Below are positions 4,430-38,846 of a DNA stretch of 55,930 nucleotides, one piece after another. How positions within the stretch are numbered: the first letter of the stretch is position 1; every line of letters starts with the position of its first letter. Below the pieces are notes generated by a model. It did not search any database. It had not been told where the DNA came from and was given only the letters and a program-made list of their open reading frames with translations. Position numbers and translations under genes: made by a program. The DNA is from an uncultured virus (IMG/VR IMGVR_UViG_3300037419_002203) (Duplodnaviria; Heunggongvirae; Uroviricota; Caudoviricetes): positions 62,001-117,930 of the IMG/VR virus record IMGVR_UViG_3300037419_002203. The stretch is one strand, 5' to 3'.

Positions 4430-4819
4430 ATGACCAACCAGCAACCCTTCATCCCGGCGGTGTTGGTAAACACTGCCAAGCTGCGCGAGTTAGCTCTTGA
4501 GCGAGCTGGCACAGTTGCCGATCAGCCGGTGACCCTGCTCGAACGAGTGGTGGTTGCGATCTTGGTGAACCGAGAAGTCAAGAGCCCGACGCATCCCTTG
4601 ATGGATACCATGCGCGAGGACTTGCAGACCTGGAACATCCCCAAGTACACGGCCCTGGTGGGTTGGTTGGCTCCCTACTCGCTGGTCTCCCAGTACCCGT
4701 CTGCGGTCAGCCGCGTTGCCCAGTACCTGCTAGGCACGACACGGGATCTGGAGCACGCCAGCATCGACTGGGAAGCCGTCCGGTACCACTACCCTCAACT
4801 CAAGCCGCCCATCTGGTAG
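4430..4819 (+). CDS. Hypothetical protein
   Basis: GGAG SD and ATG. Confidence 0.65.
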   Translation: MTNQQPFIPAVLVNTAKLRELALERAGTVADQPVTLLERVVVAILVNREVKSPTHPLMDTMREDLQTWNIPKYTALVGWLAPYSLVSQYPSAVSRVAQYLLGTTRDLEHASIDWEAVRYHYPQLKPPIW

Positions 4820-4875
4820 GTGGGCGCACTTGTCACGTCGGTTACATCCCTCCGATGCTCGAAAGGAGCTACCCC

Positions 4876-5436
4876 ATGACCACGCGTTCCACCCGCACCG
4901 CCAACACCGGCACCGAGATCGTCAAGGAGTCGGCCGAGAACATCGAGGCTGCCCCTGCCACCGACGGCCAGGTTGCCGCCACCGAGAAGGACGCCGAGAA
5001 GAAGGCGCCCGGCCCCAACGCCTACGTGGGCAACATCATGCACCTCAAGCGCGAGACCAAGTCCACCGGCAAGGCGTACGCCTTGGTGATGGTGCGCTTC
5101 GTCAACGGCCAGGAGATCGCGCAGAAGGCCGTGCAGGTCTTCCCGCGCACCGAAGGCTTCACCAGCCAGGTCGGCGACATGTTCGGCTTCGAGGCCAAGC
5201 GCCTCGTGGAAGCCTACGACAACGACGACAAGCCGATGAAGCTGGAGGACGGCACGCCCGTCTACCGCGCGTCCGGCGTGGGTCCCGAGCTGAAGCACTT
5301 CACGGTGCGGGCGACCGGCAAGGCCGCCAGCGTGGAGCCGACCGGCGAGATCAAGTCCAACGGCTTGCGCGAGCGCCTGGCGAAGGCGTCCCCGCTCATG
5401 GCCAAGTTCTTGGGCGTCAAGTTCGAGAACTCGTAA
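4876..5436 (+). CDS. Hypothetical protein, possible OB-fold nucleic-acid-binding protein
   Basis: GAAAGGAG SD, biased codons, starts MTTR with acidic leader like 1584-2105. Confidence 0.75.
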   Translation: MTTRSTRTANTGTEIVKESAENIEAAPATDGQVAATEKDAEKKAPGPNAYVGNIMHLKRETKSTGKAYALVMVRFVNGQEIAQKAVQVFPRTEGFTSQVGDMFGFEAKRLVEAYDNDDKPMKLEDGTPVYRASGVGPELKHFTVRATGKAASVEPTGEIKSNGLRERLAKASPLMAKFLGVKFENS

Positions 5437-5446
5437 GCTCCACCTT

Positions 5447-5476
5447 GAGTAGGGTCGTGGTAACATGACCCTACTC
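5447..5476 (+). other. GTAA-capped 13-bp stem-loop before the tRNA-like array
   Basis: GAGTAGGGTCGTG-GTAA-CATGACCCTACTC. Confidence 0.7.
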
Positions 5477-5486
5477 TCCTCTTCAA

Positions 5487-5558
5487 GCCTGGCGAGTCAG
5501 TGAGGAACGACATGCGGTTGAAACCCGCAGGGACCACGTTCGAGTCGTGGGCCAGGCA
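5487..5558 (+). tRNA. tRNA-Phe(GAA)-like, atypical D arm, no encoded CCA
   Basis: Acceptor GCCTGGC/GCCAGGC; anticodon stem TGCGG/CCGCA with loop TTGAAAC; T arm CCACG-TTCGAGT-CGTGG. Confidence 0.75.
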
Positions 5559-5561
5559 CTA

Positions 5562-5620
5562 GATCACTCTGTACCAACTAATCTCCTTCGGGAGGGCAGG
5601 TGGGCTCCTACAGAGTGGTC
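5562..5620 (+). ncRNA. Unassigned long hairpin RNA between tRNAs
   Basis: GATCACTCTGTA/TACAGAGTGGTC basal stem; apical CTCC-TTCG-GGAG. Confidence 0.5.
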
Positions 5621-5629
5621 GACCTTCAT

Positions 5630-5705
5630 GGGTAGGTGGTCCAGTAAGCAGGACGCGAGTGTGAAAAGCTCGGGGCACCGTGTGCAATTCCGGTCCTACC
5701 CACCA
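5630..5705 (+). tRNA. Degenerate tRNA-like gene, anticodon GAA, bulged T stem, encoded CCA
   Basis: GGGTAGG/CCTACCC-A-CCA; D stem GTCC/GGAC; anticodon stem CGAGT/GCTCG with loop GTGAAAA; T arm ACCG(T)G-TGCAATT-CCGGT. Confidence 0.65.
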
Positions 5706-5708
5706 TTT

Positions 5709-5782
5709 CCTCGGGACGCCGATGGTCGGCAGGCGCTACCAGAACATGCGCCCTCTAGGTGGTTCGATTCCATCCCCGAGGA
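5709..5782 (+). tRNA. tRNA-like gene with 11-nt anticodon loop (undetermined isotype)
   Basis: CCTCGGG/CCCGAGG; D stem GCCG/CGGC; anticodon stem GGCGC/GCGCC with loop TACCAGAACAT; T arm GGTGG-TTCGATT-CCATC. Confidence 0.65.
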
Positions 5783-5796
5783 CTTACACAACTCAC

Positions 5797-5967
5797 GGGC
5801 GTGTCAGCACCCTATCCGGCGGGTGCACCCGTGTCGTGACCCTAGCAGGATGACACCCTACGAAGGTCTAAGCTACACTGTCCCAGGCGGTGTGAAAGCC
5901 GTGTTCTGGGGTGTTAACAGCGTAGTGATGGCACGGGAGGTGGCGGGTTCAAATCCCGTCGCGCCCA
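5797..5967 (+). ncRNA. tRNA-like scaffold with ~90-nt structured insertion in the anticodon arm
   Basis: Acceptor GGGCGTG/CGCGCCC; 6-bp D stem GCACCC/GGGTGC; 10-bp stem 5828-5837/5928-5937; T arm GCGGG-TTCAAAT-CCCGT. Confidence 0.7.
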
Positions 5968-5976
5968 CCCCTTTCT

Positions 5977-6123
5977 CTGGAAGTAGCTCAGCGGTAGAGC
6001 ACGCGCATTTCGCCCATAGCTCAGTGGTAGAGCGCGCCCCAGTGAGGGGTGAGGTCCCCGGTTCGAATCCGGGTGGGCGAGCCAACGGCGCGCGGGGCGG
6101 TGGTTCAAGTCCATCCTTCCAGA
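5977..6123 (+). tRNA. Outer tRNA-like gene interrupted in its anticodon loop by a complete tRNA
   Basis: 5' half CTGGAAG-TA-GCTC-AGCGGTA-GAGC-A-CGCGC (5977-6006); 3' half GCGCG...GGTGG-TTCAAGT-CCATC-CTTCCAG-A (6088-6123). Confidence 0.75.
6010..6084 (+). tRNA. Inner nested tRNA, anticodon GTG (His-like but A33 and no G-1), encoded CCA
   Basis: TCGCCCA/TGGGCGA-G-CCA; canonical TAGCTCAGTGGTAGAGC D arm; loop CAGTGAG; T arm CCCGG-TTCGAAT-CCGGG. Confidence 0.8.
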
Positions 6124-6130
6124 CCTTCCT

Positions 6131-6204
6131 CCACGAGATGTCCGACGGTCGGGCGCGCCAGTTGCACTTTGGCGTCTTAGGTGGTTCGATTCCATCCTCG
6201 TGGA
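6131..6204 (+). tRNA. tRNA-Cys(GCA)-like with 9-nt anticodon loop (or 6-bp stem)
   Basis: CCACGAG/CTCGTGG; anticodon stem CGCCA/TGGCG with loop GTTGCACTT; T arm identical to 5709-5782. Confidence 0.65.
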
Positions 6205-6212
6205 CTACTGAC

Positions 6213-6250
6213 AGGGGACATGTGCCAGTGACACATGTCCCCTTTGTTTT
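6213..6250 (+). terminator. Intrinsic terminator ending the tRNA-like array
   Basis: AGGGGACATGTG-N7-CACATGTCCCCT followed by TTGTTTT. Confidence 0.8.
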
Positions 6251-6454
6251 TCCGGCGGCGCGCCATCGATACAGTCACGACCTGTGCCAGTGTCACTGGT
6301 GCAGCGATGGGCTTCTTTTGTGTGGCTTCGAGCCTTTAATGTGCTTCTAGCGTGCATCTACAGGCTCGATCCGTGTCAGAAGAGAGCCATTACTGCAGGG
6401 ATGGGCTAGTGTCATTTGACACTAGCTTTGGCACTGCCAAGTATGGTAGACTCG

Positions 6455-6490
6455 AAAAAGAAGAGCGATCCCGTTGCCGCGGGATCGCTC
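6455..6490 (-). terminator. Putative minus-strand intrinsic terminator
   Basis: GAGCGATCCCG/CGGGATCGCTC stem preceded by an A run on the plus strand. Confidence 0.5.
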
Positions 6491-6519
6491 GGTGACAGAA
6501 CCTACCTCGGACGAACAAG

Positions 6520-7092
6520 GTGACCTTGATGCTACCACAGAACAACAGGGGTGACAAGCCCTATGACGTTCCACGGAACCTGCAGTCCAACTACACCAAC
6601 ATCCACTGGGACAAGTTGCCTCCGGGAGCTGTGGCGGTGTTGTCACTGGGTAGTGACACTGCTAACTTCGAGACGTTGTACTACTTGGCAGCGTGTATGG
6701 CACGTCTACCAGGTCGACACCGACCCCGTGTCGAAGCTGCATTGGATCTTTGGGTAGCGGGCAACAAACGCCTCGAACCCCTAGTGACACCTGCAGTACG
6801 TCGTGCGTTCGAGACGGTCTTCGCCAACAGCAAAGGAGCACCCCCTGTGTCCAAGAATCTCACCGCTAATGAGAAACGTATATTCGCGGCCCTGACTAAT
6901 CTTCAGCCATCGCCCCACGAGATCTTCGAGGTTAGCTATAAGCAAATCGCGGAAGAATCTGGTGTTCCCATAAGGAGCGTGATTAGGTCCGTCAAGAAGA
7001 TGGCAGAGGTGCGGGGTGCCATCGAGATGGCTCCACCAGAACCCGGTAATCCGCACGCCAGCAACGCTTACAGGATTCCCGAGGAAAAGTAG
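6520..7092 (+). CDS. Winged helix-turn-helix protein (replication-initiator/HTH_36-like)
   Basis: LTANEKRIFAAL...VSYKQIAEESGVPIRSVIRSVKKM...NAYRI; codon usage more AT-rich than neighbours. Confidence 0.65.
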   Translation: MTLMLPQNNRGDKPYDVPRNLQSNYTNIHWDKLPPGAVAVLSLGSDTANFETLYYLAACMARLPGRHRPRVEAALDLWVAGNKRLEPLVTPAVRRAFETVFANSKGAPPVSKNLTANEKRIFAALTNLQPSPHEIFEVSYKQIAEESGVPIRSVIRSVKKMAEVRGAIEMAPPEPGNPHASNAYRIPEEK

Positions 7093-7535
7093 CAGTGACA
7101 AAGCCAGTGTCATTTGACAGAGGGGGTTTGTGAAGACCCCTTAACTTTGACACTGGCTTTGTCACTGGGTAGCGGTCCTGGAGATCCTGTGTGGGTGCGG
7201 GCCTACAGGCTTAACTTGACAGAAATATGGGGTTGCATACAAGATCCCATTGGTAGCCGGAGGCGGTCTGTGGGAGAGGCAATGCTGTAACCCTGACCTA
7301 GGGATCGAACCTCCGGCACCCACTGCCAACTTCTTAGAGCCCCTGACACTGCTGCTAGTGTCAGGGGCTCTCACTGTCTGTCACTACCCAACCACCGCCT
7401 CAATCTTGTAGATCCCGGCCAGATACCACTCACTTCCGTCCAACCCACGCCTACTGACAGCATGTGCAAGTTCATGCGATCATGTGTCACATGTCGACGT
7501 TACCCCACTGCCAACCACCCAGAAAGGACTTGCTC

Positions 7536-37724: not shown

Positions 37725-38846
37725 ATGAGCACCGTCCGCACCACCATCGAGCGTCTGGTCAACGTCCGGCCGCACACCAACTCTGACAACCTGAACCTCG
37801 CCATCGTGCGTGGCTGGCAAATGGTCATGAACGACCGCAACGCGGAGAACCCGCGTAAGACCGGCGACCTGGTCGTTTACTTCGAGGCGGGCACCGTGCT
37901 TCCGTTGAAGTGGGCCGAGAAGTTCGAGGTCGTCAACTACCTCTCCAACAAGACGGACATCGAGGGCAACAAGGTCTTGGTGGTCGGCAAGGTCCGCTTG
38001 CGGGGCGAGCCCAGCTTCGGTCTCACGGTTCCCGTCGCCGAGGCGCTGGCCCTGATGGACGAGCCGGACACCGCGGTTCTGTTCGAGGGCGACGACGTGT
38101 CGCACCTCTTCGGCACCAGCAAGTACCGGCCGCCGGTCAAGGCGAGCGCGGGTGACGCCGAGGAGGATCACCCGCACTTCCAGCCCTACACCGACATCGA
38201 GAACCTGCGCAACTTCCCCAACATCATCGAGGAAGGCGAAGAGGTCACCTACCGCGAGAAGCTGCACGGCACGAACTGTCGCGTGGGCTTCGTGCGCTGT
38301 GACGAAGATCCCAACTGCATCGTCCGCATGGCGGGCTCGCGCGAACTGCGGCGCAAGGCGCCCAAGACCGACGACGAGATGGCCGCCAACACCTACTGGT
38401 TCCCGTGGACGCTGGAGTCGGTCAGCTTGATGCTCAGCCACCTGGGTATTCAAGGTAACCAGAGCGCGACGCTGTACGGTGAGGTCTACGGTGGTGGCGT
38501 CCAGAAGGGCTTCGACTACGGCCACAAGCGTCCGCAGTTCCGCGCCTTTGACCTGTCGGTCAACGGCAAGTACCTGGACGATCCCGAGTTCGAGGCGCTG
38601 TGCCAGGAGTTCGGTATCGAGGTGGCGCCGCTCGCGTACCGCGGTCCCCACAACATGGCCAAGCTCAAGGAGCTGGCTGAAGGCAAGACGGCCATCGAGG
38701 GTGCCACGCATATCAGCGAGGGCATCGTCGTAACCCCCACCAAGGAGCGTGTCCACCCGCAGGTGGGTCGCGTGATCCTCAAGTACGTGTCGGATGCCTA
38801 CCTCTTCCGCAAGGGCGGGGATGACGACGACACGACCGACGTGTAA
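37725..38846 (+). CDS. RNA ligase, DRB0094/Rnl2 family with N-terminal OB domain
   Basis: HTNSDNL...LRGEPS.G N-domain; motif I EKLHGTN; YGEVYG; FD; EGIVV; ILKYVS. Confidence 0.9.
   Translation: MSTVRTTIERLVNVRPHTNSDNLNLAIVRGWQMVMNDRNAENPRKTGDLVVYFEAGTVLPLKWAEKFEVVNYLSNKTDIEGNKVLVVGKVRLRGEPSFGLTVPVAEALALMDEPDTAVLFEGDDVSHLFGTSKYRPPVKASAGDAEEDHPHFQPYTDIENLRNFPNIIEEGEEVTYREKLHGTNCRVGFVRCDEDPNCIVRMAGSRELRRKAPKTDDEMAANTYWFPWTLESVSLMLSHLGIQGNQSATLYGEVYGGGVQKGFDYGHKRPQFRAFDLSVNGKYLDDPEFEALCQEFGIEVAPLAYRGPHNMAKLKELAEGKTAIEGATHISEGIVVTPTKERVHPQVGRVILKYVSDAYLFRKGGDDDDTTDV

Follow-up and report, generated by a model that had tools for sequence, protein, structure and literature searches.

Can a tRNA-shaped gene that holds a second, complete tRNA in its anticodon loop still be of use to the genome that carries it, and in what form? 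The question is raised by a 147-nt locus in a 55,930-nt stretch of DNA from an uncultured virus of the Caudoviricetes (hereafter the window, meaning the whole stretch that was analysed), which is the right-hand 55.9 kb of the 117,930-bp IMG/VR record IMGVR_UViG_3300037419_002203 (62.8% G+C; rated 57% complete). The rest of the record encodes myovirus-type structural proteins, and its source is a soil phage. An earlier reading of the window's letters (the original prediction) had described one tRNA nested in another and proposed that excision of the inner tRNA, followed by ligation of the outer halves, would yield a second tRNA with a Trp(CCA) anticodon. We found that the nesting is real and not a simple tandem duplication, that it recurs in other phages, and that in another phage lineage the outer stems covary. 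The interpretation that we favour, tentatively, is that the inner gene is a working tRNA and the outer gene a conserved, non-decoding tRNA-shaped shell.

A complete tRNA lies within the anticodon loop of a second cloverleaf

The double cloverleaf occupies 5977-6123, bearing out the coordinates first given for it, and the inner tRNA is placed between position 34 and the remaining anticodon loop of the outer gene. Its three parts are as follows.

5977..6009, + strand: 5' half of the outer tRNA-shaped gene (acceptor strand, D arm, CGCGC, loop AUU); from the sequence, ARAGORN after deletion of the insert, and the minimum-energy fold
6010..6084, + strand: inner tRNA (6010-6081) with encoded CCA (6082-6084); from ARAGORN, Rfam (56.7 bits) and alignment with the relatives L004 and L005
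6085..6123, + strand: 3' half of the outer gene (loop ACG, GCGCG, variable region, T arm, acceptor strand, discriminator A); from the sequence, ARAGORN after deletion, and the fold

In the outer gene, CTGGAAG (5977-5983) pairs with CTTCCAG (6116-6122) to form a 7-bp acceptor stem, the D arm GCTC-AGCGGTA-GAGC (5986-6000) has a 4-bp stem, and the 5-bp anticodon stem joins CGCGC (6002-6006) to GCGCG (6088-6092), with 6090-6094 as an equally good register for the 3' strand. The T arm reads GGTGG-TTCAAGT-CCATC (6099-6115), and the discriminator is A6123. All 21 pairs of these stems (7, 4, 5 and 5) are intact, and the invariant bases U8, G18 G19, T54 T55 C56 and G53-C61 are present together with G15-C48. 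After excision of the insert, the outer gene has the stems and invariant bases of a decoding tRNA, and every element of the outer cloverleaf that had been described was recovered from the sequence, the fold and the gene caller.

On the unmodified locus, ARAGORN called the inner gene only, and in intron mode over the whole record it left the outer gene uncalled. The outer gene emerged once the inner gene had been deleted in silico, when a tRNA starting at 5977 was called in 99 of 160 combinations of deletion boundaries; as a control, the same deletion applied to 42 ordinary tRNAs of other loci gave no outer call. Folded without constraints, 5977-6123 takes the double cloverleaf as its minimum-energy structure (-65 kcal/mol; z = -2.05; 5 of 200 shuffles equally good).

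Contigs of independent runs uphold the contiguous assembly. A 61-kb contig of run X1, which may be the source sample, is identical at the locus, and the locus is also spanned by contigs of run X4 (82 kb, depth 283) and run X8 (151 nt), both with the haplotype of the close relatives described below. Among the DNA contigs spanning the locus, there was no joint and no allele without the inner gene. A pattern for the empty site, that is, the outer gene minus the insert, had no match in viral contigs or in metagenome contigs, and a pattern for diverged occupied relatives had none in metagenome contigs.

A blastn search of 5400-6300 against GenBank phages returned a sole match of 72 nt, at the tRNA-Asp/tRNA-Asn junction of Pseudomonas phages; we rejected it as a sign of a cultured relative, the similarity being generic to tRNAs. 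An Rfam match to YrlA at 5937-6002 was likewise discarded, as it scores 19.9 bits against a cut-off of 69 and consists of the T arm of one element beside the D arm of the next.

The inner gene has an Asn-like body and a variable anticodon arm

The full inner cloverleaf followed by CCA was confirmed by ARAGORN (6010-6084) and by a score of 56.7 bits against Rfam RF00005, for which the gathering score is 29. Its body has U1-A72 and G73, the identity pattern of bacterial Asn tRNAs; bacterial His tRNAs need G-1:C73. Judged by these elements, the body is of the Asn type. A His identity was considered and rejected, position -1 being T6009 and position 73 being G6081. In the window the inner anticodon loop is CAGUGAG, which has 7 nt and the anticodon GUG. 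The base at position 33, originally taken to be U, is A in both haplotypes, so that the loop departs from the usual 7-nt loop with U33.

Two relatives in IMG/VR, L004 and L005 (99-99.7% identical to the window), retain the nesting, and their outer halves are identical to the window's. Their inner anticodon arm reads CACCC-CAGUUAA-GGGUG (anticodon GUU), whereas that of the window reads CGCCC-CAGUGAG-GGGUG (GUG). All three differences in the inner gene fall in this arm (6036, 6044 and 6046; tRNA positions 28, 36 and 38), and one of them turns a G.U pair into A-U in the relatives. The variant letters at these sites are present in the contigs of runs X4 and X8. The window and its relatives differ at 156 of 55,415 aligned bases, and the triple in the inner arm is one of about eight local clusters of single-nucleotide polymorphisms, so clustering alone is no proof of selection; we regard the triple as a suggestive sign of it. 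Since the body appears to be Asn-type, the GUG form may be mischarged, or it may be poorly charged.

Release of the inner tRNA by RNase P and an RNase Z-type enzyme had been part of the original prediction. The boundaries speak for it, as a gene that runs exactly from +1 to CCA fits tRNA-processing enzymes; the release itself is what such boundaries would predict.

The outer gene after removal of the insert

No one defined excision rule gives the outer gene a 7-nt anticodon loop. Removal of the inner gene and its CCA leaves 6 nt, or 8 nt in the register 6090-6094, and a cut after the discriminator, the version originally proposed, leaves a 9-nt loop with no pair to close it. The one exception would be a cut between C75 and A76, which yields 7 nt with the anticodon UAA and C37. 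The predicted Trp(CCA) product, besides having the 9-nt loop, would repeat a canonical tRNA-Trp(CCA) that is already encoded by G006, the record to which L005 belongs. As read from these loops, splicing of the outer halves into a Trp tRNA is not supported at the window locus. The 9-nt loop of the neighbouring Cys-like gene, which had been cited as having the same layout, also allows a reading with a closing G.U pair, as a 7-nt loop on a 6-bp stem. When the outer gene was aligned to the 32 tRNAs of G006, it had no clear paralogue, and its best matches were not the inner gene.

Nested tRNA genes recur in other phages

We ran three pattern scans of IMG/VR, for a T loop followed by a T loop, for a D arm followed by a D arm, and for a T loop, CCA and a second T loop. 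The D-arm scan (12-22 nt apart) was complete and gave 35 loci, 26 of them with an inner tRNA. Eleven of the 26 give an outer tRNA and make up 8 families, one of which is the window's own relatives; in the other 15 a 5' tRNA fragment abuts +1 of a complete tRNA, with no outer call. Pairs of T loops 20-45 nt apart occurred at 124 loci or more, 44 of which had a tRNA at the first T loop, and at least 4 of the 44 were flagged as nested. The third pattern matched at least 122 loci, of which 100 were tested and at least 8 flagged, L192 being the sole clear new case among the matches listed. A further T-loop motif 12-24 nt past the CCA, with no outer call, was seen in 92 of 100 of the tRNA-CCA loci listed. 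We read the pieces beside complete tRNAs as probable 5' or 3' tRNA fragments. In phage contigs, fragments next to complete tRNAs are much commoner than full nesting.

Two further nested cases, L027 and L192, lie beyond the D-arm scan, and direct tRNA-in-tRNA nesting is found in about ten families of phage contigs, i.e. about nine besides the window's. Left out of this count were four doubtful loci (L108, L176, L203 and L242) and L123, which is nested on a long stalk. The arrangement is thus no one-off. In most nested families, as in the window, the inner gene comes after 1-5 loop bases and ends in CCA; the encoded CCA is missing from L138 and L139. Exact removal of the inner gene and its CCA yields a canonical 7-nt loop in L151 (Arg-UCU type) and L134 (Lys-UUU type), and leaves 9 nt in L141 and 10 nt in L027. 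For L151 and L134, no GenBank phage record covered at least 80% of the query. In L141 an intact paralogue of the outer gene lies 40 nt upstream.

A side observation concerns L281 (G001), in which a tRNA at 1195-1269 lies 40 nt upstream of a nested locus. It has the anticodon UUA, which would read the stop codon UAA, and C37; it is closely paralogous to the outer gene of the nested locus, and the same two T-stem mismatches occur in both.

In cellular genomes the D-arm pattern matched 112 loci; an inner tRNA was present in 42 of them, and nesting was flagged in 5, at least three of which sit on long inverted-repeat stalks. The nested locus of the window, in contrast, has only a normal 5-bp anticodon stem, and its inner gene abuts the loop bases and is unlike the outer gene.

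Outer stems covary in a distant pair of phages

The original prediction had pointed to covariation in the outer stems of related contigs as a telling sign. The window's own relatives, at about 99% identity, offered no differences in the outer halves, and the covariation was found in another lineage, represented by G003 (122.7 kb, complete) and G007 (an 8.7-kb fragment). These are distant relatives, whose neighbouring genes are 32-55% identical (tblastx). In each, at a syntenic place, an outer gene of the same kind holds an inner tRNA of the Lys-CUU type, and the nested loci are 74.8% identical over 143 nt. In their alignment the 42 pairs of the double cloverleaf (84 pair cells) are 98.8% paired. 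Eleven pairs are changed on both sides, six of them outer (acceptor, anticodon and T stems) and five inner, versus 0-1 double changes in the slid-partner controls. The outer loop remnants of the two differ by 4 nt, and the inner anticodon loop of G007 has only 6 nt.

By parsimony, the nesting would be older than the split between G003 and G007. If it is, the outer shape is under selection and the outer loop is not, and stems that are kept while the loop length is free agree better with a non-decoding shell than with a relic in decay or a decoder made by splicing. At least in this pair, then, compensatory changes that keep both the outer and the inner stems point to selection on the outer shape.

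G003 also has, adjacent upstream, a paralogous outer-type gene with a 46-nt non-tRNA insert in its anticodon loop (Rfam tRNA, 55.8 bits over 119 nt). On the minus strand of L279 (G003:6500-8100), two outer-type shells in tandem are immediately preceded by a gene for a permuted two-piece transfer-messenger RNA (tmRNA; Rfam RF04321, 64.3 bits).

The nested locus stands among deviant tRNA-like genes

In the window, the nested locus has the following tRNA-like neighbours and terminator.

5487..5559, + strand: deviant tRNA-Phe(GAA) with G8, first gene of the cluster; called by ARAGORN and absent from the Rfam output
5630..5705, + strand: second tRNA-Phe(GAA), its T loop atypical and its CCA encoded; Rfam 43.9 bits, ARAGORN at a lowered threshold
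5708..5782, + strand: tRNA shape with 8 bp in the acceptor stem and ACCA within an 11-nt anticodon loop; fold of -36 kcal/mol (z = -3.49), weak match to the tRNA-Sec model (19.1 bits)
5797..5967, + strand: 171-nt tRNA shape with acceptor stem, T arm and a hairpin of about 110 nt that replaces the anticodon arm; fold of -83.9 kcal/mol (z = -4.47; 0 of 200 shuffles)
6130..6205, + strand: Cys(GCA)-like tRNA with C37, 8 bp in the acceptor stem and 6 bp, the last of them G.U, in the anticodon stem; ARAGORN, Rfam tRNA-Sec 25.7 bits, alignment
6213..6250, + strand: intrinsic terminator that closes the cluster; terminator scan (12-pair stem, then a T run)

The shapes at 5708-5782 and 6130-6205 are paralogous. 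Their T arms are identical, and they show paired changes in acceptor pairs 4 and 7 and in the whole anticodon stem, which indicates that their shape is being kept. The ACCA in the loop of 5708-5782 has a chance probability of about 3% by a rough estimate; it could be the scar of a nested tRNA that lost positions 1-72 and kept its discriminator and CCA. The element at 5797-5967 has a 7-bp acceptor stem and a D-like hairpin, and ARAGORN calls it neither tRNA nor tmRNA. All members of the cluster that can be decoded have G34 (GAA, GAA, GUG/GUU and GCA). A 9-nt anticodon loop of the form G-U-N-N-N-A-C-(U/A)-U recurs in the window (6161-6169), in the tRNA after the nested locus of G007 (L399) and in the outer gene of L141; it can close by G.U into a 6-bp stem and a 7-nt loop with C37, and the tRNA-like genes that bear it belong to phages that are not related.

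In L004 and L005 the Cys-like gene and terminator (window 6128-6239) are replaced by 138 nt of unrelated sequence with a terminator of its own (L004 5253-5390). The swap between haplotypes begins at 6127/6128, four bases past the 3' end of the outer gene, which suggests that cassettes are exchanged at tRNA gene borders.

The relative's record G006 (205,180 bp, with terminal repeats, rated 100% complete) carries 32 canonical tRNAs for all twenty amino acids, with normal anticodon loops, about 72 kb from the nested locus. They include Asn GTT, His GTG, Trp CCA, Phe GAA and Cys GCA, and this main cluster has no Leu-UAA tRNA. Given this separate canonical set, the nested locus belongs to a second cluster of deviant tRNA-like RNAs and appears dispensable for ordinary decoding. 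The phage thus appears to keep a second, deviant tRNA cluster beside a full canonical set, with one anticodon switching between Asn and His in near-identical genomes.

An 804-nt open frame (267 aa) at 5547-6350 spans the entire tRNA-like cluster; its third-position G+C is below the 0.75 filter, and it is very probably not a gene. Of the neighbouring proteins, one of 186 aa, encoded upstream, had no homologue beyond itself, and one of 657 aa had 11 homologues, 44-64% identical to it. When viral contigs were scanned with a profile of the 657-aa protein, only the two near-identical contigs came up.

An RNA ligase is encoded in the window

Since re-joining of the outer halves would call for a ligase, we list here the one found in the window.

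37725..38846, + strand: ATP-dependent RNA ligase with an N-terminal OB domain; Pfam PF09414 (2.4e-21) and PF21189, PHROG 968 (3e-50)

Its nearest solved relatives are Naegleria NgrRnl (4.7e-9) and T4 Rnl2, and we consider it a candidate sealing enzyme only. Ligases of this kind join a 3'-OH to a 5'-phosphate. As RNase P and a 3' endonuclease would leave just these ends, re-joining of the outer halves would be chemically plausible. The nearest solved relative is known to seal nicks in duplexes, not in loops.

Among five other phage records that bear nested loci, a PF09414 ligase was found in one, and two records rated 100% complete are without it. A search for PF09511 (Rnl1) was negative in all five records, and equally so in every control genome, which makes it uninformative. 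No polynucleotide kinase-phosphatase family was matched among the 107 open reading frames (60 + 47) of the 57%-complete record. Heal-and-seal repair of the T4 type (Pnkp plus Rnl1) was rejected on both counts, the ligase being of PF09414 plus OB type and not Rnl1-type, and no kinase-phosphatase having been found among the 107 frames.

Discussion

The interpretation that we tentatively favour, a working tRNA within a non-decoding shell, would run as follows. The locus would be one double-cloverleaf gene, part of a short operon (about 5487-6205) that encodes tRNA-like RNAs and is closed by the terminator at 6213-6250. Host RNase P would be expected to cut at 6009/6010, and an endonucleolytic cut in the short single-stranded linker past the encoded CCA, followed by trimming, would free the inner 3' end. 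The inner tRNA would be a variant copy built to escape anticodon-loop nucleases, beside canonical Asn and His tRNAs; it looks like such a variant because it has A33 and an anticodon arm that differs between haplotypes. The outer shell would be kept for its shape and not for decoding, and may be grouped with the neighbours that bear an 11-nt loop or a long hairpin. Once the inner tRNA is released, 12 stem pairs would hold the halves of the shell (33 and 39 nt) together. They may or may not be joined again by the phage ligase, and the product would not have a normal anticodon loop. The role of the shell would most likely be mimicry toward a tRNA-binding protein, or that of a folded leader and trailer.

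Several points weigh against this interpretation. At the window locus, we infer all processing steps and the role of the shell from sequence. The covariation comes from another lineage and from two sequences, and it presumes that nesting predates their split; the window's relatives are only about 99% identical, with identical outer halves. The perfect 7-nt loops of L151 and L134 would fit true splicing or a very recent insertion better than a shell indifferent to its loop. The substrates of the phage RNA ligase (3'-OH and 5'-phosphate) match the ends expected from RNase P and a 3' endonuclease. Finally, the canonical outer body (U8, G18 G19, G15-C48, T54-C56 and G53-C61) is also what would be expected of a young dead relic.

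A young relic of this kind would have arisen by insertion of a CCA-ended tRNA gene into the anticodon loop of a tRNA gene already in place; the inner gene alone would function, and the outer halves would be dead DNA still to decay. Phage contigs often have half-genes next to complete tRNAs, as the 15 of 26 D-arm loci and the 92 of 100 tRNA-CCA loci among the matches listed attest, and the loop remnant of the window locus has 6 or 8 nt, not 7. The whole-cassette swap at 6127/6128 implies a recombinationally active cluster, and the intact paralogue of the L141 outer gene implies that one copy is spare there. Against this stand the 21 intact outer stem pairs of the window and the lack of an empty-site allele in viral or metagenome contigs. 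In G003 and G007, moreover, outer pairing was kept through six double changes, which is not expected of dead DNA, and the other shells of the window occur without a tRNA inside. We consider a relic unlikely at this locus.

Quite unlikely, in our estimate, is that the inner tRNA serves as an intron, excised by RNase P and a 3' endonuclease, with a ligase joining the outer halves, held together by their cloverleaf, into a second decoding tRNA. Several features would suit such splicing. The predicted 3'-OH and 5'-phosphate ends fit an ATP-dependent ligase, and the phage encodes one; the inner gene extends from +1 to CCA exactly, and no spacer is present; exact excision gives L151 and L134 canonical loops again; and the outer stems are intact in the window and covary in G003 and G007. 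A cut after C75 would give a 7-nt loop with UAA and C37, the Cys-like neighbour also has C37, and the main cluster of G006 is without a Leu-UAA tRNA. However, no single cutting rule gives 7 nt across families (6, 8 or 9 nt in the window, 9 in L141, 10 in L027, and a difference of 4 between G003 and G007), PF09414 is present in one of the five other records that bear nested loci and absent from two complete genomes, and the nearest solved relative of the ligase is known as a sealer of duplex nicks rather than loops. The Trp product first proposed would, in addition, duplicate the relative's canonical tRNA-Trp. As a general statement, that phages use whole tRNAs as introns, which RNase P and a 3' endonuclease excise and an RNA ligase re-joins to give two tRNAs per 147-nt gene, appears improbable. 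If it were true, the outer anticodon would exist only after processing and until then lie beyond the reach of anticodon nucleases, and there would be a protein-only route of tRNA splicing in the bacterial world, without EndA or a ribozyme. The locus in any case offers a concrete substrate on which RNA splicing by RNase P, a 3' endonuclease and a ligase could be examined in bacteria.

That the 147-nt double cloverleaf functions uncut, for example as a decoy for a host defence protein that targets tRNAs, is very improbable. In its favour, the double cloverleaf is the minimum-energy fold, the cluster is made up of deviant tRNA mimics, and the 3 nt of single strand before the inner +1 might slow RNase P, but RNase P accepts short leaders, and the inner gene is an excellent tRNA with encoded CCA whose anticodon changes as expected of a decoder.

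Comparison with known systems

A full-text literature search found no paper describing a complete, CCA-ended tRNA inside the anticodon loop of another tRNA, in keeping with the original prediction, which knew of no described equivalent in phages. Interrupted tRNA genes as such are well known, in archaea and eukaryotes as genes with protein-spliced introns and as split or permuted genes, and in bacteria as genes with group I introns. The archaeal and eukaryotic genes resemble the window locus in being interrupted in the anticodon loop and in having exon halves that the fold of the mature tRNA keeps together. Their splicing relies on a bulge-helix-bulge motif, the EndA endonuclease and the RtcB ligase. 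The window insert, in contrast, is a complete tRNA ending in CCA, in a bacterial virus, and its expected ends are 3'-OH and 5'-phosphate rather than cyclic phosphate and 5'-OH. Archaeal-type splicing was rejected because the fold has no bulge-helix-bulge; the junctions lie on either side of the inner tRNA's 7-bp acceptor stem, and a 4-bp helix between 3-nt bulges is absent. Group I introns in bacterial and phage tRNAs share with the window an interruption in the anticodon loop of a bacterial-type tRNA gene. A group I intron was also rejected here, with no Rfam match in 4500-7500 at E values up to 10 and an insert that is a 75-nt tRNA.

In phage T4, Pnkp and Rnl1 repair tRNA-Lys cut by PrrC. 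The window phage likewise carries an RNA ligase, but not one of the Rnl1 type. Variants in the anticodon loops of phage tRNAs have been proposed as a means of escape from host tRNA nucleases (van den Berg et al. 2023, PMC10264068). The inner tRNA of the window resembles the variants of that model, being a variant copy (A33; changes at positions 28, 36 and 38) beside canonical copies; nesting is no part of the model.

A likeness to the outer shell and to the elements at 5708-5782 and 5797-5967 lies in the tRNA-shaped stable RNAs of phage tRNA clusters, such as the species 1 and 2 RNAs of T4 and RNA1-3 of T5, which have no usable anticodon loop and are presumably excised by tRNA-processing enzymes. 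We know of none described with a complete tRNA in the anticodon loop. The body and cluster location of the outer gene fit this class, and conservation of its shape is seen in the other lineage only. The nested locus may thus link these long-unexplained tRNA-like stable RNAs of phages to tRNA genes proper. Finally, in the engineered tRNA scaffold a cargo RNA is placed at the anticodon position, and the tRNA body provides folding, stability and processing. The window locus also carries its cargo at the anticodon position, but the arrangement is natural and the cargo is itself a tRNA, which makes it a natural counterpart to the laboratory scaffold.

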